Source: an uncultured Candidatus Saccharibacteria bacterium
Lineage (GTDB): Bacteria; Patescibacteriota; Saccharimonadia; Saccharimonadales; JALRHH01
NCBI GenBank assembly: GCA_964590315.1
Contig: CAZPVS010000001.1
Coordinates: forward strand, 42,926 to 106,925
Direction: 5' to 3'
DNA: 64,000 bases
The notes below the pieces were generated by a model. That model was not told where the DNA came from. It worked only from the letters and a program-made list of their open reading frames with translations, and made no database searches. This document shows, piece by piece, positions 6,720-56,193 of this stretch; the first letter of the stretch is position 1; every line of letters begins with the position of its first letter. The position numbers and the translations under genes are program-made.

Positions 6720-7374
6720 AGAGGGTTTACTAGTATCATTTGAAGGTCAAGACGGATCCGGTAAATCAACCTTACTTGAGCTGGTCGGTGCCGCACTAGA
6801 AGAGAATGGGTACGCGGTAGAGATTGTGCCTGAGTTTTCAGAGCGAGTAATTGGCTCCTACCTCGTCAATCAACTCACTGAAAACAAGTTCTTGCGCATG
6901 AATCGTGATGGTACGAGCGCCTTGACAGAGACATTGTATATCGTTGCTGACCTTTACTCGCAAGATGAGTTTGATATCAAGCCAGCGCTTGCTCAAGGAA
7001 AAATCGTCTTAAAGGAGAGGCACCTTGATTCGATATTCGCCTGCCAAATTCCAAAAATACTTGCAGACTATCCTGATAGAAGAGAGGGTGAACTAACAGG
7101 GTGGCTTGACAGTCTTTGTAGTAGTCTAAAAGAGCCTGACTTGACAGTATTTCTTGATGTTCCCGAAATTGAGTTACGCAATCGAATAGTCGGTAGAGGT
7201 GAAGCTATCAGCGAGAGCGATGTCACCGTATTCAAGTCAAGACAGGCTATATATGACCGAATTGCAGCCACTGGAATTAAACGATGGATGAGAGCAGATA
7301 ATCGGCATAGCCCCGACCGAACAGCAGAAGTCATTATTAGAAAAGTAGAAGAAATCCTTTCCTCCCAACCCTAA
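6706..7374 (+). CDS. thymidylate-kinase-like P-loop nucleotide kinase
   Basis: VSFEGQDGSGKST matches the Tmk P-loop IxxEGxDGxGKsT. The last four codons and stop (SSQP*) lie inside repeat R1b. Confidence 0.6.
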   Translation: MSYNKEGLLVSFEGQDGSGKSTLLELVGAALEENGYAVEIVPEFSERVIGSYLVNQLTENKFLRMNRDGTSALTETLYIVADLYSQDEFDIKPALAQGKIVLKERHLDSIFACQIPKILADYPDRREGELTGWLDSLCSSLKEPDLTVFLDVPEIELRNRIVGRGEAISESDVTVFKSRQAIYDRIAATGIKRWMRADNRHSPDRTAEVIIRKVEEILSSQP

Positions 7375-7580
7375 AAACTCCTTACTCCCACTGATTGCAG
7401 CGACACGCCACCACCAGAAAAACCCTTTGCCTATTTTTTTGATTTCCCCGCCTAGATTTCTTTTTAGTTGTAAAGGGTGTTTTCTGGTGGGGCGAGCGCG
7501 GGCTTGCCCGCGCAGGCGGCGCGGCTCACATCAGTTTCTTGTGTTAAAATAGGTTCGAGCTTTGGAATACAAAGCCACCA
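7361..7580. repeat. R1b: inverted copy of R1a
   Basis: Exact reverse complement of 3556-3775. It ends with ccacca, which is shared with the start of R2b. Confidence 0.85.
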
Positions 7581-7680
7581 AAATGGAACTTTCTGAGATT
7601 TGGTCGCCCGAATGGGCGGCTTTTTCTCTGGCCGCGCGCAGCGCGAGCCAGCTGTTTGCTTGGGGGGAATTGGGAAATTG
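7575..7680. repeat. R2b: 106-bp inverted copy of the tRNA 3' flank (partner at 9363-9468)
   Basis: Exact reverse complement of 9363-9468 by hand comparison. Confidence 0.8.
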
Positions 7681-7712
7681 ACGCGCCACAGGTGGCGCGT
7701 ATTTTTGTTTTG
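7681..7712 (+). terminator. rho-independent terminator after the cassette operon
   Basis: Palindrome acgcgccac-ag-gtggcgcgt followed by atttttgttttg. Confidence 0.5.
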
Positions 7713-11282: not shown

Positions 11283-12152
11283 ATGTGGTTTATTTACGCC
11301 CTACTTGGAGCAATCGGTAAGTCTTACTCGGGATTTTTTAGGAAGAAAATCGCCAAAAGTGTCAGTGGCTCAATGTACATCTGGATTGGGTATACGTTAA
11401 TACTTGTTGTTATGACGCCCTTCATGGTTCCACAAGCTTCAGCTGTTATCGATTCGTTGGTGAAATACCCGCTTGTTGTATTTGGAGCTGCCTTCTCTTA
11501 CATGGTGGCTACTCAATTAAACCTTGAGGCTTTAAAGCGTGAGGACTTATCCTATACAGCACCTTTAAATGCTTTTGTACCTGTCTTCACACTCGCAATA
11601 GCCGTTCCTATTCTTGGTGAAACACCGCCCAGGTTTGGCTTACTTGGCATAGCAATCGTTGTAGCAGGCGCCTACATTGTTAGTATTAAGCCTGAACGAA
11701 TACATTGGTATGACCCCCTTAAGCGATTGGCTACCAGTACTGGGGCGCAGCTAACACTGGGTGTAGCACTTTGCTATGCAATCAACACAATTCTTATGAA
11801 GGTTCTAACAAATAACGACTTTAACGCTTTTGTAGTTTTATACGTAACCACGCTCGTTGGGTGGCTACTACTTATTAACGTACCTATATCTCGTAGAAAT
11901 GAGTTTAAGGAGATTAAAAGTTCTGACAGGTTCTCAGTCCTAGGTGGTAGTTTAGGCTCATTTGCTGGTAGCTTTTTCCATATTCTTGCGCTATCAAACA
12001 CATACACCAGTTATGCAACTGCAGTACGCCGTCTTGATTCTGTAATATCAGTTCTACTGGGCTGGCGCTTCTTAAAAGAGAAAAGTATTCGTGTTAAGTT
12101 AGTGGGCAGCATTGTTATGACCATCGGTGCTGCTGTAATGCTAGTTGCCTAG
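11283..12152 (+). CDS. EamA/DMT-superfamily transporter
   Basis: Ten TM helices with a duplicated EamA-domain pattern (GETPPRFGLLGIAIVVAGAYIV). Confidence 0.7.
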   Translation: MWFIYALLGAIGKSYSGFFRKKIAKSVSGSMYIWIGYTLILVVMTPFMVPQASAVIDSLVKYPLVVFGAAFSYMVATQLNLEALKREDLSYTAPLNAFVPVFTLAIAVPILGETPPRFGLLGIAIVVAGAYIVSIKPERIHWYDPLKRLATSTGAQLTLGVALCYAINTILMKVLTNNDFNAFVVLYVTTLVGWLLLINVPISRRNEFKEIKSSDRFSVLGGSLGSFAGSFFHILALSNTYTSYATAVRRLDSVISVLLGWRFLKEKSIRVKLVGSIVMTIGAAVMLVA

Positions 12153-12235
12153 TTGTTCTAGTCTGCTGCGGTAGAGTAACTTAGCCCTGTTCTCTCTAGA
12201 GAGTTGTATCCATCTACTTAGTTCCGTAAGGATAT

Positions 12236-12301
12236 CGTTCCAATTCGATTGTACTTGGGCTACCATAAGCACTTTGACCTCTATTAATCAGAGGTCTTTT
12301 A
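12236..12301 (+). promoter_or_regulatory. copy 2 of the conserved motif + terminator hairpin
   Basis: cguuccaauucgauuguacuugggcuaccauaagcac followed by the hairpin gaccucu-auuaauc-agagguc and UUUU. Confidence 0.5.
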
Positions 12302-12303
12302 TA

Positions 12304-12332
12304 TTGACAATTCGTATATTTTGTGCTAATAT
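12304..12332 (+). promoter_or_regulatory. sigma70-like promoter (TTGACA-17-TAATAT) for the 12339 gene
   Basis: Consensus -35 box, 17-nt spacer and -10 box immediately after copy 2. Confidence 0.45.
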
Positions 12333-12338
12333 ATAATT

Positions 12339-13664
12339 ATGGACCAAATACCTGATTCGGAATTAGTTTCATCCGCTCGTAGGCATGATGTCGAATCTAA
12401 AATATTTGATGGTAGCGCGAGTAAGGCTGAAGTCCGCGATTGGTATTTCTCTTTAGACCCCCTGAGGGACGACTACTATGCATCCCTTACAGAATCTTCT
12501 TTAGGTACAACTGAATCGGACCTAGTTCTTCATAACGTTGAGTATTCGCTCAGCCAGGTAGCATTGTATGGCACAGCTGCACAAATACTTTCGGATGATA
12601 AAATCGAACATACTAAGCTTAGTGTTCCAATTAATACCTCTCCTTTTGGTCGGCAAAAATCTGAAGACACTAAGCCTCAGTTCAAGCATGTAGAATACAG
12701 CCAATTCAGTATTACCAAGCTCAAAGATATTGAATCTATAAATGAGCTGAACATTGCTCAGGACTGTTTTTCTCGAGCAAGTCGATATTGTTTAGATGTA
12801 CTACGCGTACTAGAGAATAACGAATCCGAGAAGAAATTCGTAGACTCTTTATTCGAGCTACAACGTTACTATGATCGACAGTCTGTTTATGCAAATAAAA
12901 CCGTAACCAGCCTAGCAGCAGGGTGGTTATTAACTGGATCAGAAGAGCTCAGGCCTGAGCCTCATGTACTCGACTCGATTATAGATGCTCAAATGCAGTG
13001 GCTTGGAAGCCAATTTTATAACCTGGGCATCAATAAAGATTATTCATCCCTTAAACCGGCTTTCTCAAACACAATTGAGACGATTGAAGAGTTTATAATT
13101 AATCCGACGAAAAATGCGGGTCGTAAAACTGTAAAAGATCCAGCTATGAAGGGTTATTTGCATGAATTGCTTTGGATGCTCGACGCAAACTTCGTCTTAA
13201 GTAATAAATATGAAAATCTGGGACCATGTGTGGTCCCGGCTCCATTAGGTTTTGACCGTCCCGAAATCAATCATCCAGAGTTGAAACGAGGCTACGACAT
13301 GGTATTGGTAGGTCACCACGCAAGAATGCCGATACAGCTAAAATCTGGTGCATTTAGTGCAAGCCGACATAAGTATGATGAACGGATATATCTAGCACAG
13401 GAAACCAACTTCAAAGATGTGGATTTAAGAAGACTGTCATCGAGAATTAATGATTACAGAAAATGGATAGAGAGTGATTTCAATGATAGCTCTATGGCTG
13501 ATAAGATTTCATCCAGAATTTTAGCAACAGTACCTGAAGCCATTGTCGCCCTCGAAGAGTATGATGCTATTGGTCGGGTTGATGAGGCGGTAGTTAAACA
13601 ATTAGGGAAGCAAGGCGTTCAGTTCCTGTCTAACACTTACCCGATTTATAAGCCTAAGAAGTGA
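12339..13664 (+). CDS. hypothetical protein, 441 aa, no recognisable domain
   Basis: Long AT-rich ORF with its own promoter. Island cargo. Confidence 0.5.
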   Translation: MDQIPDSELVSSARRHDVESKIFDGSASKAEVRDWYFSLDPLRDDYYASLTESSLGTTESDLVLHNVEYSLSQVALYGTAAQILSDDKIEHTKLSVPINTSPFGRQKSEDTKPQFKHVEYSQFSITKLKDIESINELNIAQDCFSRASRYCLDVLRVLENNESEKKFVDSLFELQRYYDRQSVYANKTVTSLAAGWLLTGSEELRPEPHVLDSIIDAQMQWLGSQFYNLGINKDYSSLKPAFSNTIETIEEFIINPTKNAGRKTVKDPAMKGYLHELLWMLDANFVLSNKYENLGPCVVPAPLGFDRPEINHPELKRGYDMVLVGHHARMPIQLKSGAFSASRHKYDERIYLAQETNFKDVDLRRLSSRINDYRKWIESDFNDSSMADKISSRILATVPEAIVALEEYDAIGRVDEAVVKQLGKQGVQFLSNTYPIYKPKK

Positions 13665-13764
13665 GAATTAGTAACATTTTCATTCCTCTATCTCTCGGGT
13701 AGAGCAGCCCTCAGACCGTCTGCTTCAGAAAATTGTATCCACCTTACTATTTCTTTGCATATTT

Positions 13765-13832
13765 CGTTCCAATTCGGGCGTACCTGGGCTACCAAGAGAA
13801 ATTTGAAACCGTCCCATCTGGGGCGGTTTTTA
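13765..13832 (+). promoter_or_regulatory. copy 3 of the conserved motif + terminator hairpin
   Basis: cguuccaauucgggcguaccugggcuaccaagag followed by the hairpin ccguccc-aucu-ggggcgg and UUUUU. Confidence 0.5.
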
Positions 13833-13966
13833 ATTTCTCCTTGTATCGGCGCAAGCCCCTAACCTGCGTCCTGCCAGCTTCAGATGGCGAGGTCGCACGG
13901 TTCGTTCGTAACGAGCACGCGCAGGTGCTTGCACCGAGCATGCTCGGCAACGTGCCGCAGGCAGCC

Positions 13967-13982
13967 CCTGCCCCCGCTACCA
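13967..13982. repeat. 16-nt direct repeat of the tRNA-fMet 3' end (attR-like island boundary)
   Basis: cctgcccccgctacca is identical to the tRNA T-stem 3' half + acceptor + ACCA. A chance 16-mer match is very unlikely in 64 kb. Confidence 0.55.
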
Positions 13983-14124
13983 AGCAAAAAGAATAACCGG
14001 AAGTAGTCTTTCTTCGTGGTAGGGAACTGGTCGGTGAAGTAAGCCCCCACCCCCTAAACCCTGTACATCTACGACTACTTGTGTTTATTATTGAGCTATT
14101 ACATAAAAACGGGATTACCCTTAA

Positions 14125-43316: not shown

Positions 43317-45215
43317 ATGGGAAAAATTATCGGAATTGACTTAGGAACCACCAACTCTGCTATGGCAGTCATGCAGGCTGGCAAGGCTGAAATCATTGCA
43401 AACTCGGAGGGCAATCGCACAACACCATCCGTCGTTGCTATTAATAAGAATGATGAACGACTCGTAGGCCAAGTTGCGCGCCGACAACAGGTCACCAATC
43501 CTAAAAACACTATTTATGAAGTTAAACGTTTGATTGGCCGTAACTTCAGCGACAAGGAAGTACAGCGCGACCTCAAACTGATGGGCTACGAAATCGTTAA
43601 GGGCAAGACCGGTGTCAAGGTTAAGATGGGCGATAAAGAATATAGCCCCGAAGAGATTAGTGCCATGGTGCTGGCTAAGCTGAAGACAGACGCAGAGAGC
43701 TTTCTCGGTGAGCCAGTAACAGAAGCTGTTATCACTGTACCAGCGTACTTCGATGATTCCCAGCGCCATGCTACAAAAGATGCTGGCAAGATTGCTGGTC
43801 TAGAAGTAAAACGCATTATTAATGAGCCAACTGCTGCTGCATTGGCTTACGGCCTCGATAAGCAGTCCGGTAAAGATGAGAAAATTGCAGTATATGACTT
43901 GGGTGGCGGTACATTTGATGTATCTATCCTGGAGCTTGGCGACGGCGTATTTGAGGTCAAGTCAACGAATGGCGATACCCATCTTGGTGGTGCTGATTTT
44001 GATCGCGCAATCGTCAACTACTTTGTTGCTGAGTTCAAGAAGGAGCATGGCATTGACCTGACTGAGGACAACGCTGCCATGCAACGGCTCCGTGATGAAG
44101 CGGAAAAGGCGAAGATTGAGCTTTCGACGACAAATGAAGTCACGATTAACCTGCCGTTTTTGACTGCTGACGCTGATGGACCAAAGCACTTCGAGCACAA
44201 GCTGACTCGTGCCAAACTGGAGAACCTAGTCGGTGACTTGGTAGATAAAACGGCCGTTCCATGTGAGAAAGCCCTGAAGGATGCCGGCTTGAAAGCAAGC
44301 GATATTGACGCCGTGGTATTGGTCGGTGGTATGACTCGTATGCCAGCCGTACAAGAGAAGGTGAAGCAGATCTTCGGCAAAGACCCAATGAAGGGTGTCA
44401 ATCCCGATGAAGTTGTTGCTATCGGTGCGGCTATCCAGGGCGGTGTTTTGCAGGGTGATGTGAAGGACGTACTCCTTTTGGATGTAACTCCGCTTTCACT
44501 CGGGATTGAAACACTTGGCGGTGTTGCTACTAAGCTGATTGAACGAAACACAACCATCCCGACAAGCAAATCAGAGACGTTTAGTACTGCGGCTGATAAC
44601 CAGCCACAAGTAGAGATCCATGTTGTACAAGGTGAGCGAGAAATGGTAGCTGACAACAAATCTCTTGGCCGCTTTGTACTTGATGGCATTCCTCCTGCCC
44701 CACGTGGCATTCCGCAGATCGAAGTAACATTTAATATTGATGCCAACGGAATATTGAATGTGACCGCAAAGGACAAGGGTTCCGGTAAAGAGCAAAGTAT
44801 CACCATTCAGAACAGCGGTAATCTGGATAAAAATGAAGTAGAGAAGATGGCGAAAGAGGCCGAAGCTCACGCCGAAGAAGATAAGCAGAAGCGCGAAGCT
44901 ATCGATGCTCGCAACCAGCTTGACAGTGTCACATACCAGGCAGAGAAAATGAAGATCGATTACAAGGACAAGCTCTCAGAAGAAGATGTCAAAACACTTG
45001 ATGAAGCAGTCGCAGCCGCCAAGAAAGTCGTGGCAGATGAAAAAGCCAGCAAGGACGATCTAGAGAAGGCAGCCAAAGAGTTGCAGGACAAGATCATGCC
45101 TATTGGTGCCAAAATGTATGAGCAGGCTCAAGCAGCAGAAACACCAGCTGATACTGATGCTAAAAAGTCTGACAAGGACGAGCCGGTAGAAGGCGAAGTC
45201 GTCGACGAGAAATAA
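43317..45215 (+). CDS. dnaK: molecular chaperone DnaK (Hsp70)
   Basis: [14 protein letters not shown] and [10 protein letters not shown] motifs. Full-length Hsp70. Confidence 0.97.
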
Positions 45216-45298: not shown

Positions 45299-45550
45299 AT
45301 GAATATACTGGCATGGATCGTTCTCGGAGGTGTAGCTGGCTGGATCGCATCAATGTTTGCCAAAACAAACGAGAGTATGGGCATCTTTGCAAATATTATC
45401 GTTGGTATAGTCGGTGCCTTTTTAGGCGGTTGGCTGTTTGAGACATTTGGTAGCACTGGAGTGACAGGATTTAATTTCTGGAGCCTCTTCGTAGCAGTTG
45501 TCGGCGCATTTGTACTGCTGATGGTTGTGCGGGCTTTCCGCCGCGCGTAA
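45299..45550 (+). CDS. GlsB/YeaQ/YmgE family transglycosylase-associated membrane protein
   Basis: MNILAWIVLGGVAGWIASMF with repeated GxxxG helices. Confidence 0.7.
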   Translation: MNILAWIVLGGVAGWIASMFAKTNESMGIFANIIVGIVGAFLGGWLFETFGSTGVTGFNFWSLFVAVVGAFVLLMVVRAFRRA

Positions 45551-45570
45551 CCCGTTACGGCAACTTTATA

Positions 45571-45596
45571 AAAACACCGGTACATCCGGTGTTTTT
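45571..45596 (+). terminator. rho-independent terminator
   Basis: aaaacaccgg-tacat-ccggtgttttt. Confidence 0.6.
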
Positions 45597-45659
45597 ATAG
45601 TGCAGCTAAACTATATAAATTCCTGCACTTTGGCGTATTGATATATAATAATACTGAAG

Positions 45660-46319
45660 ATGAGTAAGACAAAAATTCCTAACCCCATGCATGGCCGCCG
45701 CCGCGTATTCATGGGTGTTACCATTCAGCAGGCATTTCCCTATATTCTTATCATAACGGCAATTATTGGATTCGTTGCGTCCTTTGTTCTGACACTTGAG
45801 CATATGGAATTACTGAAAGATCCAAATTATGACCCGACATGCAGTATTAACCCTATTTTAAGCTGTGGACCCGTTATGGGAAGTCCAACAGCCACGCAGT
45901 TTGGCTTTCCGAATCCTCTGATGGGGCTGGCCAGTTTTGCCGCTCAGGCCGTTATAGGACTTGCCCTCCTAGCAGGAGCTCGTATCAAAACATGGTTTTG
46001 GCGGTTATGGGGTATGCAGGTGGCAGGTAGTGTGGCGTTTACGTTGTTCCTGATGCAGCAGAGTATTTTTGTTATCAAGGCGCTCTGTATCTACTGCATG
46101 GCGGTGTGGATAATCATGAGCATTAGTGCATGGTACACCGTACAGTACCTCCTTGCAGAGGGGCATATCGGGAAGCAACAGAGTAAGACTACCCAACTGG
46201 TTCGTAAATACCACGCCGATATCCTTCTTGTATGGTTCTTGTTGGTCATTTGTTTGATTTTGTGGGAATTCTGGTACTTTTTTGGGCCGAAGTTAGGGCT
46301 TGCATCACTGGCACTCTAG
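45660..46319 (+). CDS. vitamin K epoxide reductase (VKOR) family protein
   Basis: Loop cysteine pair CSINPILSC and the active-site CIYC in a TM helix. Confidence 0.7.
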   Translation: MSKTKIPNPMHGRRRVFMGVTIQQAFPYILIITAIIGFVASFVLTLEHMELLKDPNYDPTCSINPILSCGPVMGSPTATQFGFPNPLMGLASFAAQAVIGLALLAGARIKTWFWRLWGMQVAGSVAFTLFLMQQSIFVIKALCIYCMAVWIIMSISAWYTVQYLLAEGHIGKQQSKTTQLVRKYHADILLVWFLLVICLILWEFWYFFGPKLGLASLAL

Positions 46320-46354: not shown

Positions 46355-47455
46355 ATGAGTAAACGAGATTATTATGAAGTTCTTGGCGTCGATAAGGGCG
46401 CATCAGCCGACGAAATAAAAAAAGCATTTCGTCGTCTTGCCGTGCAGTATCACCCTGATAAAGAGGGTGGGGATGAAGCCAAGTTCAAGGAAGTCAACGA
46501 GGCATATGAAGTCTTAAAAGACGATAAAAAGCGTCAGCGCTATGATCAGTTTGGACATGCCGGTGTCGGGGGCGCGAGCGGCGGCGGTAACCCCTTCGAA
46601 GGCTTTAGTGGTTTTGGTGGCCAGGGACAAAACGTTAATTTCGATTTTGGAGATCTCGGCCTTGGCGATATTTTTGGCAGTTTCTTTGGCGGAGGGCATC
46701 AACGCAAACAACAGCATCGCGGGAATGACATCGAAACATTGGTGGAGGTGGAATTTGAGCAAGCGGTGTTCGGCACAGAAGTTGATCTTAACCTCAATCT
46801 TGAAGATAACTGTGAACACTGCAAAGGTACGACCGTTGAGCCTGGCCACGAGCTGAAGACGTGTGATGAATGTCACGGCTCCGGGCAAACCGTGCGTGTC
46901 ATGCGCACGATGTTCGGTAATATCCAGCAAGCAACAGTTTGCCCGACGTGTAAGGGGAACGGCAAGGTCCCAGAGAAAGTATGTTCCGTTTGTCGCGGTA
47001 GCGGCACACAGCGTACTAAGCAAACAGTTGCCCTCAAAATTCCTGCGGGCGTGGACGATGGGGCGGTTATTAGATTACGTGAACACGGTGAAGCCATTGC
47101 CAACGGGCCAAAGGGCGATCTGTATGTCAATATTCGCGTCAAACCGCACAAGAAATTCACCCGTGAAGGCGACTTAATTCTTTCTGAAGAAGCAATAGAT
47201 ATGGTTGACGCAGCACTTGGTATCGAAATAAAGGTAGATACTGTCGATGGCCCAATCACCATGAAAGTTCCTGCCGGTACCCAGAGTGGTACGGACTTTA
47301 AATTATCCAACCACGGCGTACCTCATTTACGTAAAGAAACTCGAGGTGCCCACATTGTGACGGTCGTCGTTCAGACCCCGACCAAGCTCAATAAGAAACA
47401 ACAGCAACTACTCGAAGAATTCAAAAATTCCAAAAAAACCGGCCTCTTCAACTAA
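46355..47455 (+). CDS. dnaJ: molecular chaperone DnaJ
   Basis: J domain with HPD (YYEVLGV...YHPDK), a G/F-rich region and 4 x CxxCxGxG. Confidence 0.95.
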
Positions 47456-47504
47456 CAAGCGTACTGAGCTAGACAAAAGTACAAAAAGTAGTATAATATC
47501 GTGT

Positions 47505-49331
47505 ATGATTGAGCAAAGCTCAGAAGCCCTTTGGCCATTCTCTGAACGCAATGGTGTCAATGTTGCCGCGGATATTGAAGTTTTGCTAGCAGAGCCTGAA
47601 ATACAATTGAGCTCAGAAGATCGCTTTGCTGCCCAAACCTTCGCCCGTGAAATATTCGAGGGTAACATTGAAGGCGGCCCACACTGTAAGGCAGAAAGAA
47701 GCCTAGAAGAGGTTAATAAACTATCTGTTCTGGCGAGTGAGCAGACATTCTACACCGGCTATTTCAATACTGAAGCAGGAAAAAGTGACCTAGCAGGTAT
47801 GAGAATTGACCCTGCCACTAACAATATCGATAAGTACTTACTGGATGTGATCACGGTTAGCGACACTGTTGACGAAAAAGTACGTAAACAAGTTGCCATC
47901 AACAGCTTGAACTGGTATAAGGAGCAGGTTGCCGAACACCTGAAGGGCGACGGAACGAAAGACGCGCTGTACGAAGATGCAGAATCGATTACAGTCAATT
48001 ATGAACCAGATAAGCTCCTCGACAAGCTTGAATACCTCCAAAACTATCGTCGTTTTTACCGACATGTGCGCGCAGGGCTAGGACAAGAAGAGCCGTCAGA
48101 CCTTCTGACAGCAAAACAGACAGTGCTTGATGTCCATATTGCTCGGGTAAATAACTTGATGGCCGGTTTGTACACAAGTGCAGCAAATCTGGCACGACAG
48201 CTTGATGCGTGCGAACCCGGCGTTGATAATGAGCGCTGGACTGAGCGTCTTGTAGCCATCGCTCCAGTTATTAGCAACGCATGTAAAGCTGCGAACAGAG
48301 AACACTTTGAGCAATTTGCCGATACATTTGCGCGTCGCCTTGATTTGGTTCGTAACGGGGCGGCACTTGACGAAAACGAACAGCCCGTACCGATAAGCAA
48401 AGAACTGAAGATACTCGCAGAACAACTCACGGGCGCACCGGAAGGTACGGTAACTGCTGAGGCAAGAGTGACGCCTGAGCAACTCAAGATTATGGACACC
48501 ACTTTCTGGACAGGCGAACAGCTTAAAGAATTTAACGAAACAATTTTAGCAAAATGGGGCTTACTTAGTGAGCATCAAACTGACTGGGTAGAGGCTGGCA
48601 AACGAAGTGGCACCGCCCTTGATGGAAAATGGCAGTATGTCGTAGATCCAAAACGGAAATCTCTAGCCGTTGATGGTACGAAGAAGATTGTATTTGGACC
48701 GGAAGTGTTCGGGCGTAATCTTACGGATGAGAGTCCAGCCGGTGGGCTGCCAGTGTCCGCGCATGAGCTGACGCATGTTTTGCAGAATGAGTATGACGAA
48801 GAACTTGCCAAGCAAATTCCACTGGCTAAGACTAAGGGAGCACGATACGTTGCGGTTCGGGAGATGGCCGGAATTATGCAAGAGAATGTAGTTCAGGGAT
48901 ATTTTGGTCGCTCACGTGGTACGAATCTGCATTACCTTCGCGCACTTCAAACAAAACTAGACGGCGGTAACTTAGTGCAAACTGCGAGAGCATTCTATGA
49001 ATCTCAGCGCGAAGGCAAGCAACTTAGTGAGGCAACTGACAAAAAACTCAGAGATATGGCGGTAGACAGATCGCTCCGTCTGTACCGAAACGACGGTCAC
49101 GAATCGCAACCACTTGATTATGCTGAACAAGACCTTATTGCCCGCGGCTTCAAGAATGTTTTGCCAACTGAACGTTCGGCAATTGCAATTGCTGGTGGCA
49201 GCTTCTCGCTCCGACACAGTGCAGCCCTGCATAGAGTCGGCTTACTTGAAGTGCCTAAGGAAGTCGCCGACAATCCTGCTGAAGATGTCTGGAGCCTATT
49301 TGTTGAGGAGTACTTACCTGAACTTAAGTAA
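47505..49331 (+). CDS. hypothetical 608-aa protein with an HExxH motif (candidate zinc metallopeptidase)
   Basis: SAHELTHVLQNEYDEE. Sits immediately upstream of the retropepsin-like/RimK/DUF192 cluster. Otherwise unrecognisable. Confidence 0.5.
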   Translation: MIEQSSEALWPFSERNGVNVAADIEVLLAEPEIQLSSEDRFAAQTFAREIFEGNIEGGPHCKAERSLEEVNKLSVLASEQTFYTGYFNTEAGKSDLAGMRIDPATNNIDKYLLDVITVSDTVDEKVRKQVAINSLNWYKEQVAEHLKGDGTKDALYEDAESITVNYEPDKLLDKLEYLQNYRRFYRHVRAGLGQEEPSDLLTAKQTVLDVHIARVNNLMAGLYTSAANLARQLDACEPGVDNERWTERLVAIAPVISNACKAANREHFEQFADTFARRLDLVRNGAALDENEQPVPISKELKILAEQLTGAPEGTVTAEARVTPEQLKIMDTTFWTGEQLKEFNETILAKWGLLSEHQTDWVEAGKRSGTALDGKWQYVVDPKRKSLAVDGTKKIVFGPEVFGRNLTDESPAGGLPVSAHELTHVLQNEYDEELAKQIPLAKTKGARYVAVREMAGIMQENVVQGYFGRSRGTNLHYLRALQTKLDGGNLVQTARAFYESQREGKQLSEATDKKLRDMAVDRSLRLYRNDGHESQPLDYAEQDLIARGFKNVLPTERSAIAIAGGSFSLRHSAALHRVGLLEVPKEVADNPAEDVWSLFVEEYLPELK

Positions 49332-49600
49332 GCAGCAGTGTTGAATATTTGTCGCTTATGGTAAATAATAAGAGGTAATGAAGAAGCTTATTCCCGCACA
49401 AGCTGGTTTTATTCCTATGATTATCATGTTGCTCTTGATGATTGTTGGCGCAATTGCCTTGGCTTATTGGCGTGTTTCCAACGCAGGCAGCTAAGCATAA
49501 CAGTATTGCAAAAAGAATCAATACATGTTATAATGATAAATATTGTGCTATTGCTTTTGCGGCCAATATGCTTACAATGCGTTCATAGACAAGGAAAACC

Positions 49601-50086
49601 ATGGCAAAATACCAGATTATTATCGGGCGCGCAGAGAATATTGACTTTGTCGGTACTTCTTTAGGAGTGCCCGCTAAAATTGATACCGGAGCCTTTCGAT
49701 CCTCTGTACATGCTACCAATATACGGGAGAAGACGGATTCAAATGGCGAAAAGATCCTTACGTTTAATTTGTTTGGACATAAGTGCGCACCCGTCAAGCG
49801 GTCGCTTCAGGCTGAGAGGTATGATCTGATTCCGGTTAAAAGTTCTAATGGCGAAGTAGAAACTCGTTATGAAGTAACACTCAAGATTAAAATCGGACCA
49901 AAAATATTCAATACTAGCTTTACGCTTGCCGATCGCACAAATAATGTCTACCCCGTGCTAATTGGTAGGAAAGCATTAAAAAACCGCTTTATGATAGATC
50001 CAGCACGAGCGTCTGTTAATCGTATGGAGCTACGTAAGAACTTTGGCCTATCGGGTGCATATTCAGAGGAAGACTTCGAGGATTAA
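49601..50086 (+). CDS. RimK-associated retropepsin-like putative ATP-dependent zinc protease (DUF785-like)
   Basis: GRAENIDFVGTSLGVPAKIDTGAFRSSVHA...VYPVLIGRKAL pattern. It directly precedes rimK, as in many genomes. Confidence 0.55.
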   Translation: MAKYQIIIGRAENIDFVGTSLGVPAKIDTGAFRSSVHATNIREKTDSNGEKILTFNLFGHKCAPVKRSLQAERYDLIPVKSSNGEVETRYEVTLKIKIGPKIFNTSFTLADRTNNVYPVLIGRKALKNRFMIDPARASVNRMELRKNFGLSGAYSEEDFED

Positions 50087-50088
50087 GC

Positions 50089-51000
50089 ATGAGAATAGCA
50101 ATTTTATCTAACGGTCCCGGTAACTACTCTACAAAGCGCCTTAAGGAAGAGGCGAAATTACGTGGACATGAGGTACAGGTCATTAAGTACAAAAATTGTT
50201 ATGCGGCCATGGAGCAGAGTAATCCCGTGGTGCGCTATGACGGCGAAATTCTTACTGATTTTGACGTGGTGATACCCCGCATTGCGAGTTACATGACACG
50301 ATATGGTTCTGCAATAGTTCGCCAGTTTGAGATGCAAGGCGTGTACACCCCGACCAGTTCTATTGCGATAGTGCGATCCCGAGATAAATTGCGCAGCCTG
50401 CAGTTATTGGCCCGTGCCGGCGTGGGTATTCCTAAGACTGTTTTTGCACGTTCGGCCGCTGACGTAAATGACCTTATTGATGAATTGGGTGGAACGCCAG
50501 TGATTATTAAGTTGGCTCGTGGCACGCACGGAAACGGTGTGGTCTTGGCAGAGACGAAGAAAGCTGCCAAGTCAGTATTACAGGCGTTTTATGTGATGGA
50601 CGAAGATGGTACCAACATATTGCTGCAGGAATTTGTAAAAGAATCTGCTGGTACTGACATTCGTGCATTTGTGGTGGGTGGCAAAGTGGTTGCAAGTATG
50701 CAGCGCCAGAGCCTCGATGACGATTTCCGTTCAAATTTGCACCAAGGAGGCGAGGGTCGTGCTATTAAATTAACTGATCAGGAACGCCGCACAGCAATTA
50801 AGGCTGCGAAGGCAATGGGTTTGGCTATCTGTGGTGTTGATATGATGCGTAGTGCACGTGGTCCACTGGTTCTTGAAGTGAATGCCAGTCCTGGCTTCGG
50901 TATAGAAAAAGTGACTAATCGCGATATAGCTGGGCAGATTCTTGACTACATTGAGTTAAATGCTCGAGGCAAGCGTCGTCGTGATCGCGTCGGTGCCTAG
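50089..51000 (+). CDS. rimK: RimK-family alpha-L-glutamate ligase (ATP-grasp)
   Basis: MRIAILS start, ATP-grasp motifs and RimK length and layout. Confidence 0.85.
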   Translation: MRIAILSNGPGNYSTKRLKEEAKLRGHEVQVIKYKNCYAAMEQSNPVVRYDGEILTDFDVVIPRIASYMTRYGSAIVRQFEMQGVYTPTSSIAIVRSRDKLRSLQLLARAGVGIPKTVFARSAADVNDLIDELGGTPVIIKLARGTHGNGVVLAETKKAAKSVLQAFYVMDEDGTNILLQEFVKESAGTDIRAFVVGGKVVASMQRQSLDDDFRSNLHQGGEGRAIKLTDQERRTAIKAAKAMGLAICGVDMMRSARGPLVLEVNASPGFGIEKVTNRDIAGQILDYIELNARGKRRRDRVGA

Positions 51001-51442
51001 AAAATATCGCCTAGTACTACTAGCTATTGCTGTGATCTTGCTGGTAATGGGATACGGTATTGCCAGTAGAGCTGGACACACGAGACGGCCCGCAGCTCCC
51101 CCTGTGCAGGATATTACGGCCAGCTTTTCTCTTGAGACGGTAACGACGTATGAACAGCGTCAGAAAGGTCTTTCTGGTCGCATGAGTCTTGCCCAGGATC
51201 GGGCAATGCTTTTTGTGTTTGATGGCGAAAGTAGACGATGTATTTGGATGAAAGATATGCAATTCCCGATAGATATTGTGTGGCTAAGTGGCAGCAAACA
51301 AATTGTCGCCATTGAACGTAATGTCAGCCCCTCGACATATCCGTCTTCGTTTTGTCATGATGACTCACACTATGTGCTAGAGTTTGCAGCCGGAGCCGTA
51401 GACGCAGCTGACTTACGTATCGGCGAGCACGTACGTCTCTAG
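50960..51442 (+). CDS. DUF192 family protein
   Basis: DMQFPIDIVWLSGSKQIVAIERNVSPST...HYVLEFAAG matches the DUF192 (COG1430) pattern. N-terminal TM helix. The 41-nt overlap with rimK suggests the real start is later. Confidence 0.55.
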   Translation: MLEASVVVIASVPRKYRLVLLAIAVILLVMGYGIASRAGHTRRPAAPPVQDITASFSLETVTTYEQRQKGLSGRMSLAQDRAMLFVFDGESRRCIWMKDMQFPIDIVWLSGSKQIVAIERNVSPSTYPSSFCHDDSHYVLEFAAGAVDAADLRIGEHVRL

Positions 51443-51460: not shown

Positions 51461-51940
51461 ATGATACCGCTTATTGTAATCGGCGCACTTGCTGTCTTGC
51501 CTGTGTTTCTTGCGCTTATATTGCGGGTGAATGCCGTATTTGTCTTCCTGAGCATTGCGGCCGGTTACTTTCTACAGTACGCACTGAGTGATGACGTAGA
51601 CCTGGTAATTGCCACAGTTGTCCAAGGAAGCAATGCGATGGTTGCAGCACAGTTCATACTGCTGTGTGCCCCAGTACTCGTGACAATGCTATTATTGCGT
51701 CGCACACGGGGCAAGGGTCTTTTGTTCCAGCTGGTACCACTAGTATTTTCTGGCATGTTGCTTGCAACGCTTGCGCTGCCCCTACTGCCGCCAGATATGG
51801 CGCAGCAAGTGTACGATACGGCATATGGTAGTGGCATCAAGCAGTCACAAGATTTGGTGATTGCCGCTGCCGCAATATCAAATCTGAGTCTCTCATATGT
51901 CCTATTCAAGCATAAGGATAGACACGGCAAACATCGGTAA
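51461..51940 (+). CDS. hypothetical membrane protein (4 TM helices)
   Basis: Hydrophobic ORF upstream of the histidine kinase. Confidence 0.4.
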   Translation: MIPLIVIGALAVLPVFLALILRVNAVFVFLSIAAGYFLQYALSDDVDLVIATVVQGSNAMVAAQFILLCAPVLVTMLLLRRTRGKGLLFQLVPLVFSGMLLATLALPLLPPDMAQQVYDTAYGSGIKQSQDLVIAAAAISNLSLSYVLFKHKDRHGKHR

Positions 51941-51964: not shown

Positions 51965-54457
51965 GTGAAAAGCGGGTATAATAGAGTTATCAGCAAGGAG
52001 AACGCTGTGCCAAGGCGTCAGCAGCCGAGGAAAGAACTCGCCCGCAATGAACATTATCAGGCTTTCATACAGGCCAGTAGTGATGGTATATGGCGTTTCG
52101 AATTGCAGCAATCGGTATCGATCCAGCTACCCCCACATGACCAGATAAAGCACTATTATAAATATGCATTCTTGGCTGAAGCCAACCGTGCGATGGCGCG
52201 TATATGTGGCTTTCGGTCGATTTCGCCAATGATTGGGCTATCGTTTGGTGATGTTTTACCTGCAAAGGACGCCCAGAATAATGCACTACTACGGGCATTT
52301 ATTGCTGCGAAATATCGTCTTAGTGACTACACGACTCGACAGGTATATGGAAAGGGCAAGGAACGGTATTATCGAAATAGCATGACTGCTATTGTTGAGG
52401 AGGGTTCTGTCGTACAGATATGGGGAACGTGCCAAGACATAACTGATCAACAGCAGACAGCCGAGGCATTGCTGTATAACAAGGAGCGGCTTGATCTGGC
52501 TCTCAGGGGTTCGCACATGGGTTTGTGGGAATGGAACGTGCTGACAAATCAGCTGTTCTGGTCACCCCAACTCAAAAAAATGTACGGGCTAAAGCAAAAC
52601 AAACGAGTAACGTATGAAGATTATTTGGCGATGTTGCCCGCGGATGATCGTGCACGTACGCAGAAGCTTATTGCAAAAAGTCTAAAAACAGGGCAACCGT
52701 ATACAATGGAGCATCGTGTTATATGGCCGGACGGTACGGAGCATTGGATATTGGGTCAGGGGAAGGCGTATAAAGAGTCAGGGCAAATCGTGCGTATGGT
52801 TGGTACTGCTTTGTCGATTGATCGACAAAAGAATATTGAGACAACCCTGCAGCGACAAAACGCATATCTTGAAACACTGCACATCACTGCACTGGACGTC
52901 AGTCTTGGTCTCAAAAAACATACGCACGTGCTGAAGACTATTTTAGAACGGGCAGGGAAAATTAACGGCACGCATGATGGCTATATATACTTGAAAGATC
53001 CGCAAACCCAGAAGCTTGTCGTACGAGTGGGAACAGGGTTGTTTAAGGAATATGTCGGCCATACAATTAATTTTGGCGAAGGACTTGCCGGGAGGGTATG
53101 GGAGACAGGTCAACCGCTCACCGTTCCAGATTACGAGACATGGGATAAGCGCCAGAGTAGTTTCCCAAAGGGGCTAGTGCGTACGGTTATTGGCATGCCG
53201 CTACGGACAGACGAGGGGGTGATCGGTGTAATGACACTAGCACATCGGTATGTGAATAACGATTTTGATAGTGAGCAAATGGCAGCATTATCGCGACTAG
53301 CGGACCTTGCGAGTGTGAGTCTTCGCAATGCCCGTGTTTTGGAGGACGTAAAAGAAAGTGAACAGCGTTTCAGAACGATGGCTGATACGGCACCCGTAAT
53401 GATCTGGCTGTCTGGCGCCGATAGACAGGTAACATATTGCAATAAGTCATGGCTTGAATTTACGGGGCAGGCTGCGGCAGGGAAATGCAGTGCGGAGTGG
53501 ACAGGTAATGTGCATCCTGACGATGTAGCAAAATACCAGAAAACGTATGAAACTGCTTTTGATTCTCAGCAGTCGTTTAGTGTGGAATATCGCCTACGTC
53601 GGCATGATGGTGAGTACCGGTGGATATTGGATGTTGGTCGACCACGCTTTTCTCCAGAGGGAAAATTCGTTGGATATATTGGATCAGGCACTGATATACA
53701 TGATTTGAAGCGAGCAAGTGAGTTGATACTTGCTAATTCGCAGCTGAAGAACCAGCGTCGACAACTTATTGCGCTGAACAAAGCTAAAGATGACTTTGTT
53801 GCGCTTGCCTCACATCAACTGCGTACTCCTGCAACCGCCGTAAAGCAGTATATAAGTTTGCTGATAAATGATTATGCCGGGCCAGTTACCCCTGATCAAC
53901 TGCAGTATTTGCAAATTGCCTATAATAGCAATGAGAGGCAATTAAAGATTATTAATGATTTGCTGAAGACTGCGCAACTAGATTCGAGTCGGTTCGCGCT
54001 CGATATGGAACCACACGATATCGCGCGCATAATCACCGCAGCTGTTGACGAGCTTGAAATAACCGTTGAGCTGAAAAACCAACGGATAGTATTACGAGAT
54101 ATCTCTTCTGAAACCATAGAAATTGATGAGACAGAGATGAAGCTTGTCCTCGTGAACTTACTCGAAAATGCCAGCAAGTATAGCTATCCTCACTCAGAGA
54201 TTGTGGTAACTATGCAAAAGCAGGACGGCTTTCTAGAGATTGCAATTAGGGATAAGGGGGTTGGCATCAGCCGTGAAAACAAGCAACGTATATTTGATAA
54301 GTTTACCCGAATTGATAACGATTTGTCAGATACGGTGAGTGGCTCTGGGCTGGGGCTGTATTGGGTGAAGCGAATCGTGGCAATGCACGGGGGGAATATT
54401 AAAGTGAACTCTGCATTGAGTAAAGGCTCGACGTTTACAATAAGGTTGCCGCTATGA
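51965..54457 (+). CDS. multi-sensor histidine kinase (PAS/PAS/GAF/PAS + HisKA + HATPase_c)
   Basis: H-box ASHQLRTPATAV. N, G1 and G2 boxes (NLLENASKYS, DKGVGIS, GSGLGLYWVKRIV). Confidence 0.85.
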   Translation: MKSGYNRVISKENAVPRRQQPRKELARNEHYQAFIQASSDGIWRFELQQSVSIQLPPHDQIKHYYKYAFLAEANRAMARICGFRSISPMIGLSFGDVLPAKDAQNNALLRAFIAAKYRLSDYTTRQVYGKGKERYYRNSMTAIVEEGSVVQIWGTCQDITDQQQTAEALLYNKERLDLALRGSHMGLWEWNVLTNQLFWSPQLKKMYGLKQNKRVTYEDYLAMLPADDRARTQKLIAKSLKTGQPYTMEHRVIWPDGTEHWILGQGKAYKESGQIVRMVGTALSIDRQKNIETTLQRQNAYLETLHITALDVSLGLKKHTHVLKTILERAGKINGTHDGYIYLKDPQTQKLVVRVGTGLFKEYVGHTINFGEGLAGRVWETGQPLTVPDYETWDKRQSSFPKGLVRTVIGMPLRTDEGVIGVMTLAHRYVNNDFDSEQMAALSRLADLASVSLRNARVLEDVKESEQRFRTMADTAPVMIWLSGADRQVTYCNKSWLEFTGQAAAGKCSAEWTGNVHPDDVAKYQKTYETAFDSQQSFSVEYRLRRHDGEYRWILDVGRPRFSPEGKFVGYIGSGTDIHDLKRASELILANSQLKNQRRQLIALNKAKDDFVALASHQLRTPATAVKQYISLLINDYAGPVTPDQLQYLQIAYNSNERQLKIINDLLKTAQLDSSRFALDMEPHDIARIITAAVDELEITVELKNQRIVLRDISSETIEIDETEMKLVLVNLLENASKYSYPHSEIVVTMQKQDGFLEIAIRDKGVGISRENKQRIFDKFTRIDNDLSDTVSGSGLGLYWVKRIVAMHGGNIKVNSALSKGSTFTIRLPL

Positions 54458-54837
54458 GTAAGCAAAAGACCATACTGATTGTTGAAGATGAGCTGATACT
54501 GCAGGATGTGTACCGACTAGTGCTCTCAAAAAGCGGCTATGTTATTTATACTGCCGAAAATGGTGTGGATGGCCTGCACAAAATGAAGAAGATTAAGCCC
54601 GATCTTGTGCTGCTCGATATATTTATGCCGCTCATGGATGGGAGGGAATTTTTACGCAATATTGATATGGCGGAGTACCCACATACAAAAATAATCGTGT
54701 ATACGAATATGTACGATAAGGCAACCGAGAACGAGATGGCATCGCTGGGGGCTGATGCTTTTGTGTTGAAGTCGAGCATGACCCCTAACGATCTCGTCAC
54801 TATTGTTGAGCAATATCTCGGACCGGTATCGCAGTAG
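54454..54837 (+). CDS. response regulator receiver (CheY-like, single domain)
   Basis: ILIVEDE...DLVLLDIFMP with conserved Asp and Lys positions. Start overlaps the kinase stop. Confidence 0.85.
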   Translation: MSKQKTILIVEDELILQDVYRLVLSKSGYVIYTAENGVDGLHKMKKIKPDLVLLDIFMPLMDGREFLRNIDMAEYPHTKIIVYTNMYDKATENEMASLGADAFVLKSSMTPNDLVTIVEQYLGPVSQ

Positions 54838-54855
54838 GCACTCTCTGGCGTAGTA

Positions 54856-56193
54856 TCAGTTTGCTGGTAGCGTCAATATGATCGTTGTTCCGACGTTTTC
54901 TTCTGAGGTAAAGCTCACATTGCCGCCATGCTGTTCCATGACGGTTTTAACGAGATAGAGGCCCAGGCCGGTCCCGGGAATGTTACTTGCGACAGCATTA
55001 CTGGCCCGGTAAAAGCCTTTGTATACCTTGCTGTGTTCTTCTTTCGGTATGCCGATACCCTGATCGCTGATATGGATTGATTGCATGAGGCCGGTTTTGT
55101 TCCAGGAGAAGGTGACAGCAGTATTAGGCTTGGTGTATTTGATACCATTGGACACGACATTGTAGAGCACGCGTTTCATCATCGTCACGTCGCAGTTAAT
55201 GATAAGCTCCCGCGGCCATGATGGATCAAGCACAAATGAGACGTTCTTCTGCTGCGCGGTGAGCATTTGCACATCAGTGATTTCAGCGAGTAAGGCGTTT
55301 ATATCAGTCGGCTCACGATTTAGCTTTCGGCGATTCATGGCATGAGAAAGCTCAAGTATGTCGTCGGTACTTGCTTGTAAACGTTCTGCACTTGCGACGA
55401 TAGAATGTGCCAATTTTTTAGCTGTTTCTTCCTGTGCGTATGGTTCAAGACTGGTTGCTGCCCAGCGGATACCTGTCAGTGGATTTCGGATCTCATGTGA
55501 AGCAACCGACACGAGCTCTGATCGCAGTGCCATCAGCTGCGCATTGCGTCGTCGTATCCACTCAAAGAACAATAGAATGATAATCAGCGTTAGCCCGGTG
55601 CTGAGCGGGATGATCGCAGCCACTAAAATATCGCGCCAATAGGTCGATGATGCCACATCAATACCCAACACTGCTACTACGTCACCCGTAGATGGGTCGT
55701 ACATGGGCGCCAGGCCGGAAATAAATGTACCAAAATCATCAGTCACGGGGCCTTCGACCACCGTGCCTTTTGTCTGGAATATACCCTTAAATTCTTCAGT
55801 TGCATCATCGTAGGGTTCACCTGCTGGTGAGTAATCTTGGCTTTCGGGGTCCTCTGAATCAACATAGAAAAATAGCTGACCATCGCCGCGGTCGCCCGCG
55901 ATATACACGCTGCGGATTTTAGCATCGGATGCGGCAACATTATGTAAGTGTCGCTTGAGCTCACGGTAGGAAGAAGTGTTCTCGTCGGACGTATCGCCCG
56001 CCAGACTCATGATCTTTTGCGCATCAAGCGCCGCAGCGGCAATCTCACTGTTTTTCTTGAGGTCGGTGCGTATACGCTGGGCAGCCTGCTGGCCAGAATA
56101 TACTGCTGAAAGCACACTGATGAGTACGACTACACCAATACACGCCATGACGAAGGTGTGAATTTTGTCGCTAATCTGAGGAGTTAATCGCAT
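54856..56193 (-). CDS. membrane sensor histidine kinase
   Basis: N-terminal TM helix, periplasmic domain and second TM helix. ASHEIRNPLTGI H-box and GTGLGLYLVKTV G2 box. Confidence 0.8.
   Translation of the reverse strand: MRLTPQISDKIHTFVMACIGVVVLISVLSAVYSGQQAAQRIRTDLKKNSEIAAAALDAQKIMSLAGDTSDENTSSYRELKRHLHNVAASDAKIRSVYIAGDRGDGQLFFYVDSEDPESQDYSPAGEPYDDATEEFKGIFQTKGTVVEGPVTDDFGTFISGLAPMYDPSTGDVVAVLGIDVASSTYWRDILVAAIIPLSTGLTLIIILLFFEWIRRRNAQLMALRSELVSVASHEIRNPLTGIRWAATSLEPYAQEETAKKLAHSIVASAERLQASTDDILELSHAMNRRKLNREPTDINALLAEITDVQMLTAQQKNVSFVLDPSWPRELIINCDVTMMKRVLYNVVSNGIKYTKPNTAVTFSWNKTGLMQSIHISDQGIGIPKEEHSKVYKGFYRASNAVASNIPGTGLGLYLVKTVMEQHGGNVSFTSEENVGTTIILTLPAN

Follow-up and report, generated by a model that had tools for sequence, protein, structure and literature searches.

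A candidate MATCAP-like metallopeptidase family beside rimB and rimK in Candidatus Saccharibacteria

Introduction

What does a 608-amino-acid (aa) protein with an HExxH zinc-binding motif do next to the glutamate ligase RimK? The question is raised by a 64,000-nucleotide (nt) stretch of DNA from an uncultured Candidatus Saccharibacteria bacterium (contig CAZPVS010000001.1; this whole stretch is hereafter the window), in which the gene for this HExxH protein precedes genes for a RimB-like retropepsin, RimK, a DUF192 protein and a membrane protein. To our knowledge, RimK-type glutamylation of ribosomal tails is one of the few reversible protein-tail modifications of bacteria, and we know of its erasers only from Pseudomonas RimB. 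A preliminary description of the window had suggested that the HExxH protein is a metallo-carboxypeptidase which makes RimK tailing reversible. From our analysis, the C-terminal half of this protein is probably a divergent member of the MATCAP superfamily, and for its action on protein tails together with RimK we see about an even chance. Only in 2022-2023 was MATCAP identified as a family of tubulin detyrosinases and deglutamylases, and the literature searched yielded no experimental work on the bacterial relatives of this family (DUF1704).

The HExxH protein and its family

All genes named in the preliminary description are present in the list of open reading frames (ORFs), on the same strand and at the coordinates given below and in the next section. 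The features that carry the argument are as follows.

47505 to 49331, + strand: 608-aa HExxH protein, with a helical family-specific N-terminal region (about residues 1-320) followed by a predicted C-terminal zincin-type catalytic domain
48477 to 49331, + strand: MATCAP/DUF1704-like region (about residues 325-608), consisting of a helix and beta-sheet, the HExxH helix, a Glu helix and C-terminal helices
48762 to 48776, + strand: HELTH, residues 420-424 (H420, E421, H424), predicted metal ligands and catalytic base
48861 to 48863, + strand: E453, predicted third metal ligand, in the helix after the HExxH helix
49601 to 50086, + strand: RimB-like retropepsin aspartic peptidase, 161 aa (PF05618 at 1.3e-21)
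50089 to 51000, + strand: RimK, ATP-grasp alpha-L-glutamate ligase, 303 aa (PF08443 at 2.5e-59; PF18030, Rimk_N, at 2.7e-34)

Searches of the 608-aa protein against Pfam and NCBIfam gave no match save a sub-threshold one to eCIS_core at the HExxH motif, which agrees with its earlier characterisation as an unannotatable protein carrying HELTH. A word-indexed search of 5.8 billion proteins retrieved 16 relatives of 38-47% identity, the few named ones being from Candidatus Saccharibacteria, and an exhaustive profile search of 1.84 billion cluster representatives extended the family to 416 proteins at E <= 1e-3 (256 at E <= 1e-30), the 416 being representatives at 50% clustering. Those listed are mostly ~580-640 aa long, and every named member comes from Saccharibacteria or other Patescibacteria. 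The HELTH motif is invariant in the 16-sequence alignment of close relatives, and HExxH occupies the equivalent site in ~95% of the 157 family sequences inspected. In an alignment of 108 members, whose columns average 25% identity, four residues (H424, G285, R525 and Y539) never vary, and H420, E421, Q427, E453, G455, Y477 and E541 are at least 90% conserved. No recurring family was found when 67 distant members were scanned with Pfam at E 1; sporadic matches among family members, to eCIS_core, M48 and Zn_peptidase_2, were confined to single sequences and to the motif. Direct sequence searches of all PDB chains with the protein and with the 108-sequence profile returned nothing relevant.

Distant homology to MATCAP

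The link to MATCAP was revealed only when the profiles were deep on both sides; a 16-sequence HExxH profile gave no significant match to a single MATCAP sequence. For the MATCAP side, we aligned 30 of the 65 collected Saccharibacterial homologues of a genuine MATCAP (PF08014) gene found in one related locus (L012). These proteins carry the motifs HEVLVH (that is, HExxxH) and EEGLGVLVE, and via the same motifs their profile connects to the human MATCAP structures 7z5g, 7z5h and 7z6s. Comparison of the 108-sequence HExxH profile with this 30-sequence profile by hhalign gave a probability of 92.2% (E 6e-07) over 198 columns, the main alignment spanning residues 331-567 of the query and 196-429 of MATCAP at ~16% identity. 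The probability was 74% for the close clade only and 91% for the distant clades only, which share no sequences with the close clade, and reversed-profile controls gave 0.1%. After masking of the HExxH and Glu motifs it was 73%, and residues 325-416 alone, which cover the helix and beta-sheet before the HExxH motif, reached 92% (E 5.5e-07), while neither the N-terminal residues 1-324 alone nor the segment past residue 463 alone matched MATCAP significantly. Weak but collinear matches in the same region were returned by profile hidden Markov model (HMM)-versus-sequence searches in both directions.

In the main alignment, HExxH falls onto the HExxxH of MATCAP (HEVLVH) with a one-residue gap, and E453-x-G falls onto its EEG (REMGG in the family consensus, REMAG in the window), so that the well-conserved E453 stands where the third-ligand Glu of MATCAP is expected. 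The hhalign results and their controls are indicative of superfamily-level homology across the catalytic domain, and on these profile comparisons we assign the C-terminal half, with fairly high confidence, to the MATCAP superfamily as a divergent member. A distant kinship with DUF1704/MATCAP had been offered in the preliminary description, and the match proved robust to subsampling, masking and reversal.

The predicted structure was examined with AlphaFold2 (AF2). The full-length model, built from the 16-sequence alignment, is mostly helical with a predicted local distance difference test (pLDDT) score of 89 and a predicted TM-score (pTM) of 0.87, and a domain-only model (residues 322-608) has a pLDDT of 90. 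Strands are predicted at 376-405, the HExxH helix at 414-435 and the helix bearing E453 at 449-466; in the model, this succession of beta-sheet, HExxH helix and Glu-bearing helix is the layout of a zincin core. Foldseek searches of PDB with the full-length model gave only helical-repeat noise and no significant match, and the sub-threshold list obtained with the domain model consists mostly of gluzincins (LTA4H/M1, cold aminopeptidase, M61, selecase), with E at least 0.13 and TM-score at most 0.35. The modelled fold is thus compatible with a zincin and discriminates no further.

Gene neighbourhood in related loci

The cluster continues past rimK with two further genes, and two chaperone genes lie directly upstream of the HExxH gene.

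43317 to 45215, + strand: dnaK, from the translation (product 77-86% identical to DnaK in 12 related loci)
46355 to 47455, + strand: dnaJ, from the ORF list (product 65-76% identical to DnaJ of related loci)
50960 to 51442, + strand: DUF192 protein, 160 aa (PF02643 at 8e-28, 96.9 bits against a cutoff of 27; start codon uncertain)
51461 to 51940, + strand: hydrophobic multi-pass membrane protein, 159 aa, with no family match; conserved last gene of the cluster

The order on the one strand is dnaK, Transgly_assoc, VKOR, dnaJ, the 608-aa HExxH gene, the RimB-like gene, rimK, DUF192 and the membrane-protein gene. The dnaK and dnaJ genes, which had no place in the preliminary description, are the most conserved neighbours of the cluster. 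We compared this context in 22 loci with an intact gene of the HExxH family, the window included, and found rimB-rimK at most 3.7 kb downstream on the same strand in 17 of them. Within the window's own subfamily, 13 of 14 loci have the arrangement dnaK-dnaJ-[HExxH]-(variable insert)-rimB-rimK, and most of its rim-linked loci continue with a DUF192 and/or membrane-protein gene. The inserts comprise ATP-grasp genes of the L-amino-acid-ligase type (L003/L010, L007, L008), GGDEF genes (L005, L007, L013) and glycosyltransferases. The rim link is kept in all four loci of a second subfamily, whose identity to the window protein is only ~27-30% and whose clusters have one to three additional ATP-grasp ligases (cyanophycin-synthetase-like, divergent RimK and BacD/DdaF-like) intercalated. 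By the terms of the preliminary description, its proposal would fall if the HExxH protein had no peptidase-like fold and did not accompany rimK in other genomes; neither proved to be the case, and the co-occurrence extends even to this second subfamily.

True MATCAP (PF08014) genes lie in the same cluster in 3/3 contexts examined. The order is dnaJ-MATCAP-HExxH-rimB in L012, dnaJ-MATCAPb-MATCAPa-HExxH-rimB in L018, and dnaJ-...-MATCAPb-MATCAPa-rimB in L019, where a MATCAP gene abuts rimB. These three Saccharibacterial loci display directly the DUF1704-RimK neighbourhood that the preliminary description had mentioned, and no published statement of that linkage was found in the literature searched. 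The sole close-subfamily locus with the HExxH gene elsewhere (L001, between nusG and rplK) comes from the same assembly as L019, GCA_016789455.1, in which the place next to rimB is taken by a true MATCAP gene. Of all the evidence from gene context, this exchange of positions speaks most strongly for a shared role of the two peptidase types.

The intercalated ligases invite another explanation, namely that the HExxH protein is a peptidase for free poly-alpha-glutamate or for small peptides made by RimK and the accessory ligases, in recycling or maturation, and does not act on protein tails. RimK does make free poly-alpha-L-glutamate, and RimB stimulates this synthesis (PMC11957791); the ligases of L010, L014-L017, L007 and L008 resemble cyanophycin synthetase, N-acetylglutaminylglutamine synthetase and the BacD/DdaF L-amino-acid ligases, all makers of free peptides. 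The window, however, has RimK only and no accessory ligase, the characterised members of the MATCAP family act on protein C-termini (PMC10499314), and the large family-specific N-terminal region would suggest a macromolecular substrate. We therefore regard the free-peptide explanation as unlikely.

A third subfamily, represented by four metagenome loci (L020-L023), was obtained from a scan with a narrow eight-sequence alignment. At these loci and at L001, translation-related neighbours recur: the HExxH gene is directly downstream of ychF in L022 (ychF at L022:1-759) and L023 (L023:2756-3856), lies 2.4 kb from tuf (EF-Tu, 12920-14107) in L020, and is flanked by nusG (7143-7688) and rplK (11972-12397) in L001. 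Such neighbours may reflect chance in small gene-dense genomes or hint at a connection with the ribosome. They could be taken to mean that the protein is a zincin, catalytic or not, which belongs to translation and has nothing to do with RimK; its partner would be the ribosome or a translation GTPase, and its similarity to MATCAP a matter of shared zincin ancestry. The ~5% of members without HExxH would fit such a protein. The genomes of these bacteria are generally small, gene-dense and rich in translation genes, so that translation neighbours are expected by chance. The hhalign signal, moreover, resides in non-motif regions that are not common to generic zincins, true MATCAP genes substitute positionally beside rimB, and the known target of RimK is itself a ribosomal protein, which makes a ribosomal link compatible with a role beside RimK. 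This is, in our judgement, the least probable of the alternatives, and a very unlikely one.

The constancy of the chaperone genes raises a further possibility, that of a quality-control metalloprotease of the chaperone operon which works with DnaK and DnaJ and whose proximity to rimB-rimK is inherited gene order. The dnaJ gene is upstream on the same strand in the window and in L002-L005, L007, L008, L010-L016 and L018; in fact it precedes the HExxH or MATCAP genes in all rim-linked loci with sufficient flank, except L017. The HExxH gene also has a promoter-like site of its own, and the rim-linked genomes are closely related (DnaK ~84% identical). Nevertheless, dnaJ and the HExxH gene are often separated by others, namely GGDEF genes, genes for 780-950-aa proteins and MATCAP genes, and L017 keeps HExxH-ATP-grasp-rimB-rimK with a P-type ATPase gene upstream in place of dnaJ; L001 and L020-L023 likewise have no dnaJ nearby. 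The homology that was found, furthermore, is to a family of tail-trimming carboxypeptidases and not to known quality-control proteases. On balance, a chaperone-associated protease appears quite improbable, though less so than the translation-associated zincin.

The RimB-RimK pair, DUF192 and the membrane protein

The RimK of the window scores 340.3 bits against NF007764 (S6--L-glutamate ligase; cutoff 331) and 262.8 bits against TIGR00768, which places it above the equivalog cutoff, and it is 66-81% identical across related loci. Its RimB-like companion has a retropepsin domain with the catalytic DTG at residues 28-30 (nt 49682-49690), a DTG(A) kept in 19/19 orthologues, and its gene ends 2 nt before the start of rimK. 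The best NCBIfam model is RimB (NF052261) at 6.9e-19, but with 68.1 bits against an equivalog cutoff of 200 the protein is RimB-like and its equivalence is not demonstrated.

RimB is the experimentally established protease that removes Glu from RimK-modified, polyglutamylated RpsF, as demonstrated in Pseudomonas (PMC11957791, PMC7343187). The preliminary description had rightly noted a retropepsin as the companion of RimK but missed this role, and reversibility does not require the HExxH protein, because RimB already trims the Glu residues. An add-and-trim pair thus already exists in 49601-51000 as established biology, without the HExxH protein. A search for rpsF (S6) did not find the gene in the window or in any fetched locus.

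The DUF192 gene was found in 12 of the 17 rim-linked loci, and its product has a hydrophobic N-terminus (membrane anchor or signal sequence) in all orthologues. The gene had been described as overlapping rimK; it is indeed present, but the 41-nt overlap (50960-51000) hinges on the ATG chosen by the ORF lister. The ORF-list sequence is not in the public protein collection, in which the other four cluster proteins are present, and the public annotation probably uses another start. Homologues of the 159-aa membrane protein occupy the same position in at least nine related loci. Judging by their N-terminal hydrophobic anchors, DUF192 and the membrane protein are probably extracytoplasmic, so direct participation of DUF192 in tail editing is unlikely, and neither protein is given a part in the model of tail editing below.

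As a separate observation, the RimB-like protein of the window has an acidic C-terminal tail (...SEEDFED, at ~nt 50063-50083), and its closest orthologues end in ...DEEEGRQS, ...DEEDGRDA and ...DEEANDED (L014:15471-15968, L015:14027-14524 and L017:5157-5651, respectively). Conceivably, such tails could be substrates of RimK or of the peptidases, or autoregulatory elements.

Proposed role in tail editing

The HExxH protein is plausibly a tail-editing peptidase. In the model that we put forward, with about equal confidence for and against, it is a cytoplasmic MATCAP-type metallopeptidase of an expanded Rim module, located downstream of dnaJ, that trims C-terminal tails. H420 and H424 of HExxH, together with E453, would bind a divalent metal of the zinc type, and E421 would be the general base that activates water, while the ~320 helical, family-specific N-terminal residues may select the substrate. 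RimK would add alpha-linked glutamates to a protein C-terminus (that of ribosomal protein S6 in the systems studied), and the accessory ATP-grasp ligases of many relatives may add other residues. RimB would cut within the polyglutamate, and the MATCAP-type peptidases, including the HExxH protein, would remove residues from the C-terminal end of the tail by exo- rather than endo-cleavage, by analogy with MATCAP/TMCP. The tails of DnaK and DnaJ were considered as substrates and dropped, as their ends look like those of ordinary bacterial DnaK and DnaJ.

Several findings weigh against this model. The window protein has no PF08014 or TIGR02421 match even at E 0.1, and these two models are likewise unmatched by the 67 distant family members at E 1, whereas the neighbouring true MATCAP genes do match both (2.1e-17 and 6e-16, respectively); the family, moreover, carries HExxH and not the HExxxH of MATCAP. 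With neither an HMM match nor the motif spacing of MATCAP, the protein falls outside the family proper; the distant homology suggested in the preliminary description stands. Foldseek against PDB gave no significant match for the full-length and domain models (best E 0.13), and the MATCAP structures 7z5g, 7z5h and 7z6s were not among the top 50 for the domain model. Promoter-like sites precede both the HExxH gene and rimB, which leaves co-transcription unestablished. The rim-linked genomes are close relatives (DnaK 77-86%, DnaJ 65-76%, RimK 66-81% and HExxH 26-46% identical), so that the conserved gene order may in part be inherited. The surroundings of the HExxH gene in L020-L023 lack rim, DUF192 and dnaJ genes alike (0/4, two of the contigs having short flanks). 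Finally, at L009:4409-4824 the HExxH gene is reduced to a C-terminal remnant of ~84 residues in two frames, between intact dnaJ and rimB, which suggests that loss of this gene need not entail loss of the rim genes.

A bolder extension of the tail-editing model, which we consider doubtful, is that Saccharibacteria, with genomes of ~1 Mb, possess a locus for a multi-enzyme C-terminal tail code with up to four ATP-grasp writers and up to four erasers. The writers would be RimK, divergent RimK, cyanophycin-synthetase-like and L-amino-acid-ligase-like enzymes; the erasers would be the RimB retropepsin, two MATCAP paralogues and the HExxH branch, with cyclic di-GMP (c-di-GMP) enzymes alongside in some genomes. 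The HExxH family might then be a new class of tail-editing carboxypeptidases with its own N-terminal substrate-recognition domain, acting on S6 or another target, and the locus a prokaryotic counterpart of the eukaryotic TTL/TTLL-MATCAP tubulin tail cycle and possibly a relative of the ancestor of that cycle.

What is new here is, probably, a branch of the MATCAP superfamily that had not been classified before and is so far seen in Patescibacteria only; its metal motif is altered, its N-terminal region is new, and its gene lies in an uncommonly elaborate cluster of ATP-grasp ligase and peptidase genes. Should the family consist of divergent MATCAP-type peptidases that act with RimK, ~400 protein clusters now without a family would be assigned to one and given a function open to testing, and one bacterial gene cluster would unite the writers and erasers of a scheme like the tubulin code. 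Saccharibacteria may then have an unusually rich tail-editing toolkit, and the cluster would be a lead to a regulatory layer (ribosome/proteome tuning) in ultra-small epibiotic bacteria, whose conventional regulators are very few. Without a link to RimK, the family would still be a new zincin family restricted to Patescibacteria.

Comparison with known systems

One of the closest known systems is that of MATCAP/TMCP1-2 (KIAA0895L, KIAA0895) and bacterial DUF1704 (PF08014; TIGR02421 'QEGLA motif protein', alias 'tyrosine/phenylalanine carboxypeptidase domain-containing protein'). MATCAP/TMCP enzymes have HExxxH and a putative third-ligand EEG motif and take off C-terminal Tyr and Glu from acidic tubulin tails, which are written by ATP-grasp ligases (PMC10499314). 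The HExxH protein resembles them in its collinear profile homology, in the helix and beta-sheet before the metal-binding helix, and in the His-Glu...His followed, ~25-30 residues on and in the next helix, by a conserved Glu-x-Gly; genuine PF08014 genes, besides, adjoin both the HExxH gene and rimB-rimK in Saccharibacteria. It differs in its length, which is greater by ~170-200 residues, in a ~320-aa N-terminal region for which no counterpart was detected, and in the confinement of its named family members to Saccharibacteria and other Patescibacteria.

Pseudomonas RimABK consists of the RimK ligase, the RimB retropepsin and the c-di-GMP phosphodiesterase RimA. As there, rimB is directly upstream of rimK in the window, and RimK exceeds the S6--Glu ligase equivalog cutoff. 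Like the Rim systems of PMC11957791, the relatives of the window include RimB-RimK hybrids, and some clusters contain c-di-GMP enzymes (GGDEF). Unlike RimABK, however, the Saccharibacterial clusters have no RimA/EAL gene, their window representative has a RimB far below the equivalog cutoff (68 versus 200 bits), and they add one to three MATCAP-superfamily peptidases, up to three further ATP-grasp ligases, DUF192 and a membrane protein.

A likeness can also be drawn to the eukaryotic tubulin tail cycle, in which TTL/TTLL writers add Glu or a terminal residue to acidic C-terminal tails and MATCAP/TMCP and CCP peptidases remove them, as ATP-grasp writers and a MATCAP-type eraser would here stand side by side. 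There is no tubulin here, the erasers include a retropepsin, and the likeness is an analogy of mechanism only. With the gluzincins (M1 LTA4 hydrolase, M61 and minimal selecase), the HExxH protein shares the predicted beta-sheet, HExxH helix and Glu-bearing helix, and it has no sequence-profile match to the M1, M61 or selecase families.

Other features of the window and related loci

Three minor features lie near the start of the HExxH gene and in the spacer between it and rimB.

47470 to 47497, + strand: promoter-like site TAGACA-16-TATAAT (11/12 consensus match), ending 8 nt before the ATG of the HExxH gene
49378 to 49494, + strand: 38-aa hydrophobic ORF with an AAGAGGT Shine-Dalgarno sequence, in the HExxH-rimB spacer; membership in the system uncertain
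49506 to 49534, + strand: promoter-like site TTGCAA-17-TATAAT with extended TG, upstream of rimB (consensus match only)

The first of these promoter-like sites is the best in the region, and its position would imply a leaderless or very-short-leader mRNA. Both sites are consensus matches only, and the regional total of such sites is not above that in shuffled sequences. The product of the spacer ORF (49378-49494, +) is MKKLIPAQAGFIPMIIMLLLMIVGAIALAYWRVSNAGS. Small hydrophobic ORFs are found at the same spacer position in L011 and L012 and are dissimilar in sequence to it; the ORF was considered as a precursor-peptide gene on account of its good Shine-Dalgarno sequence, and this was rejected for want of conservation in other loci.

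Between dnaK and dnaJ, the window has genes for a Transgly_assoc membrane protein and a VKOR homologue (45299-46319), which are not conserved in related loci. Past the cluster, at 51965-56193, the translations indicate an 830-aa sensor histidine kinase-like ORF, a response regulator and a second histidine kinase on the opposite strand; these neighbours are not conserved in related loci either.

The GGDEF diguanylate-cyclase genes inside the dnaJ...rimB cluster are located at L005:3853-4500 (-), L007:7410-8195 (-) and L013:7131-7784 (-). They recall the control of Pseudomonas RimK by c-di-GMP via RimA, and the cluster of the window has none.

Active RimB-RimK hybrids are known, and most of the hybrids described in PMC11957791 come from Flavobacteriales and Rhodobacterales. 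Two types were noticed among the relatives of the window. The first joins RimB to a divergent RimK-like domain, with canonical rimK following as a gene of its own (six loci: L002:9936-11276, L004:12028-13380, L005:4809-6140, L006:1688-3007, L011:10097-11425 and L013:9939-11279), and in the second, RimB is in frame with the canonical RimK (L007:15079-16494 and L008:13365-14771).

Proteins of 780-1094 aa are encoded between dnaJ and the peptidase genes at L014:7250-9925, L015:7618-9966, L016:7146-10004 and L019:5120-8404. Those of L015, L016 and L019 have no Pfam/NCBIfam match, and that of L014 has only a precomputed TrbL_3 (PF19590) entry; they could be a further uncharacterised component of the expanded cluster. 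A ~600-aa ORF upstream of dnaJ in L014 and L015 was considered as a paralogue of the HExxH gene and rejected, as it is not a family member.

Two of the loci are on metagenome-assembled contigs with unexpected labels, L003 (DATIJU010000025.1, labelled Bacillota) and L004 (DATLCF010000001.1, labelled Nevskiaceae). Both carry a Saccharibacteria-type cluster, with DnaJ ~74-75% identical to that of the window and, in L004, DnaK ~84% identical, so that their taxonomic labels probably result from misbinning. In this region, L003 hardly differs from L010.

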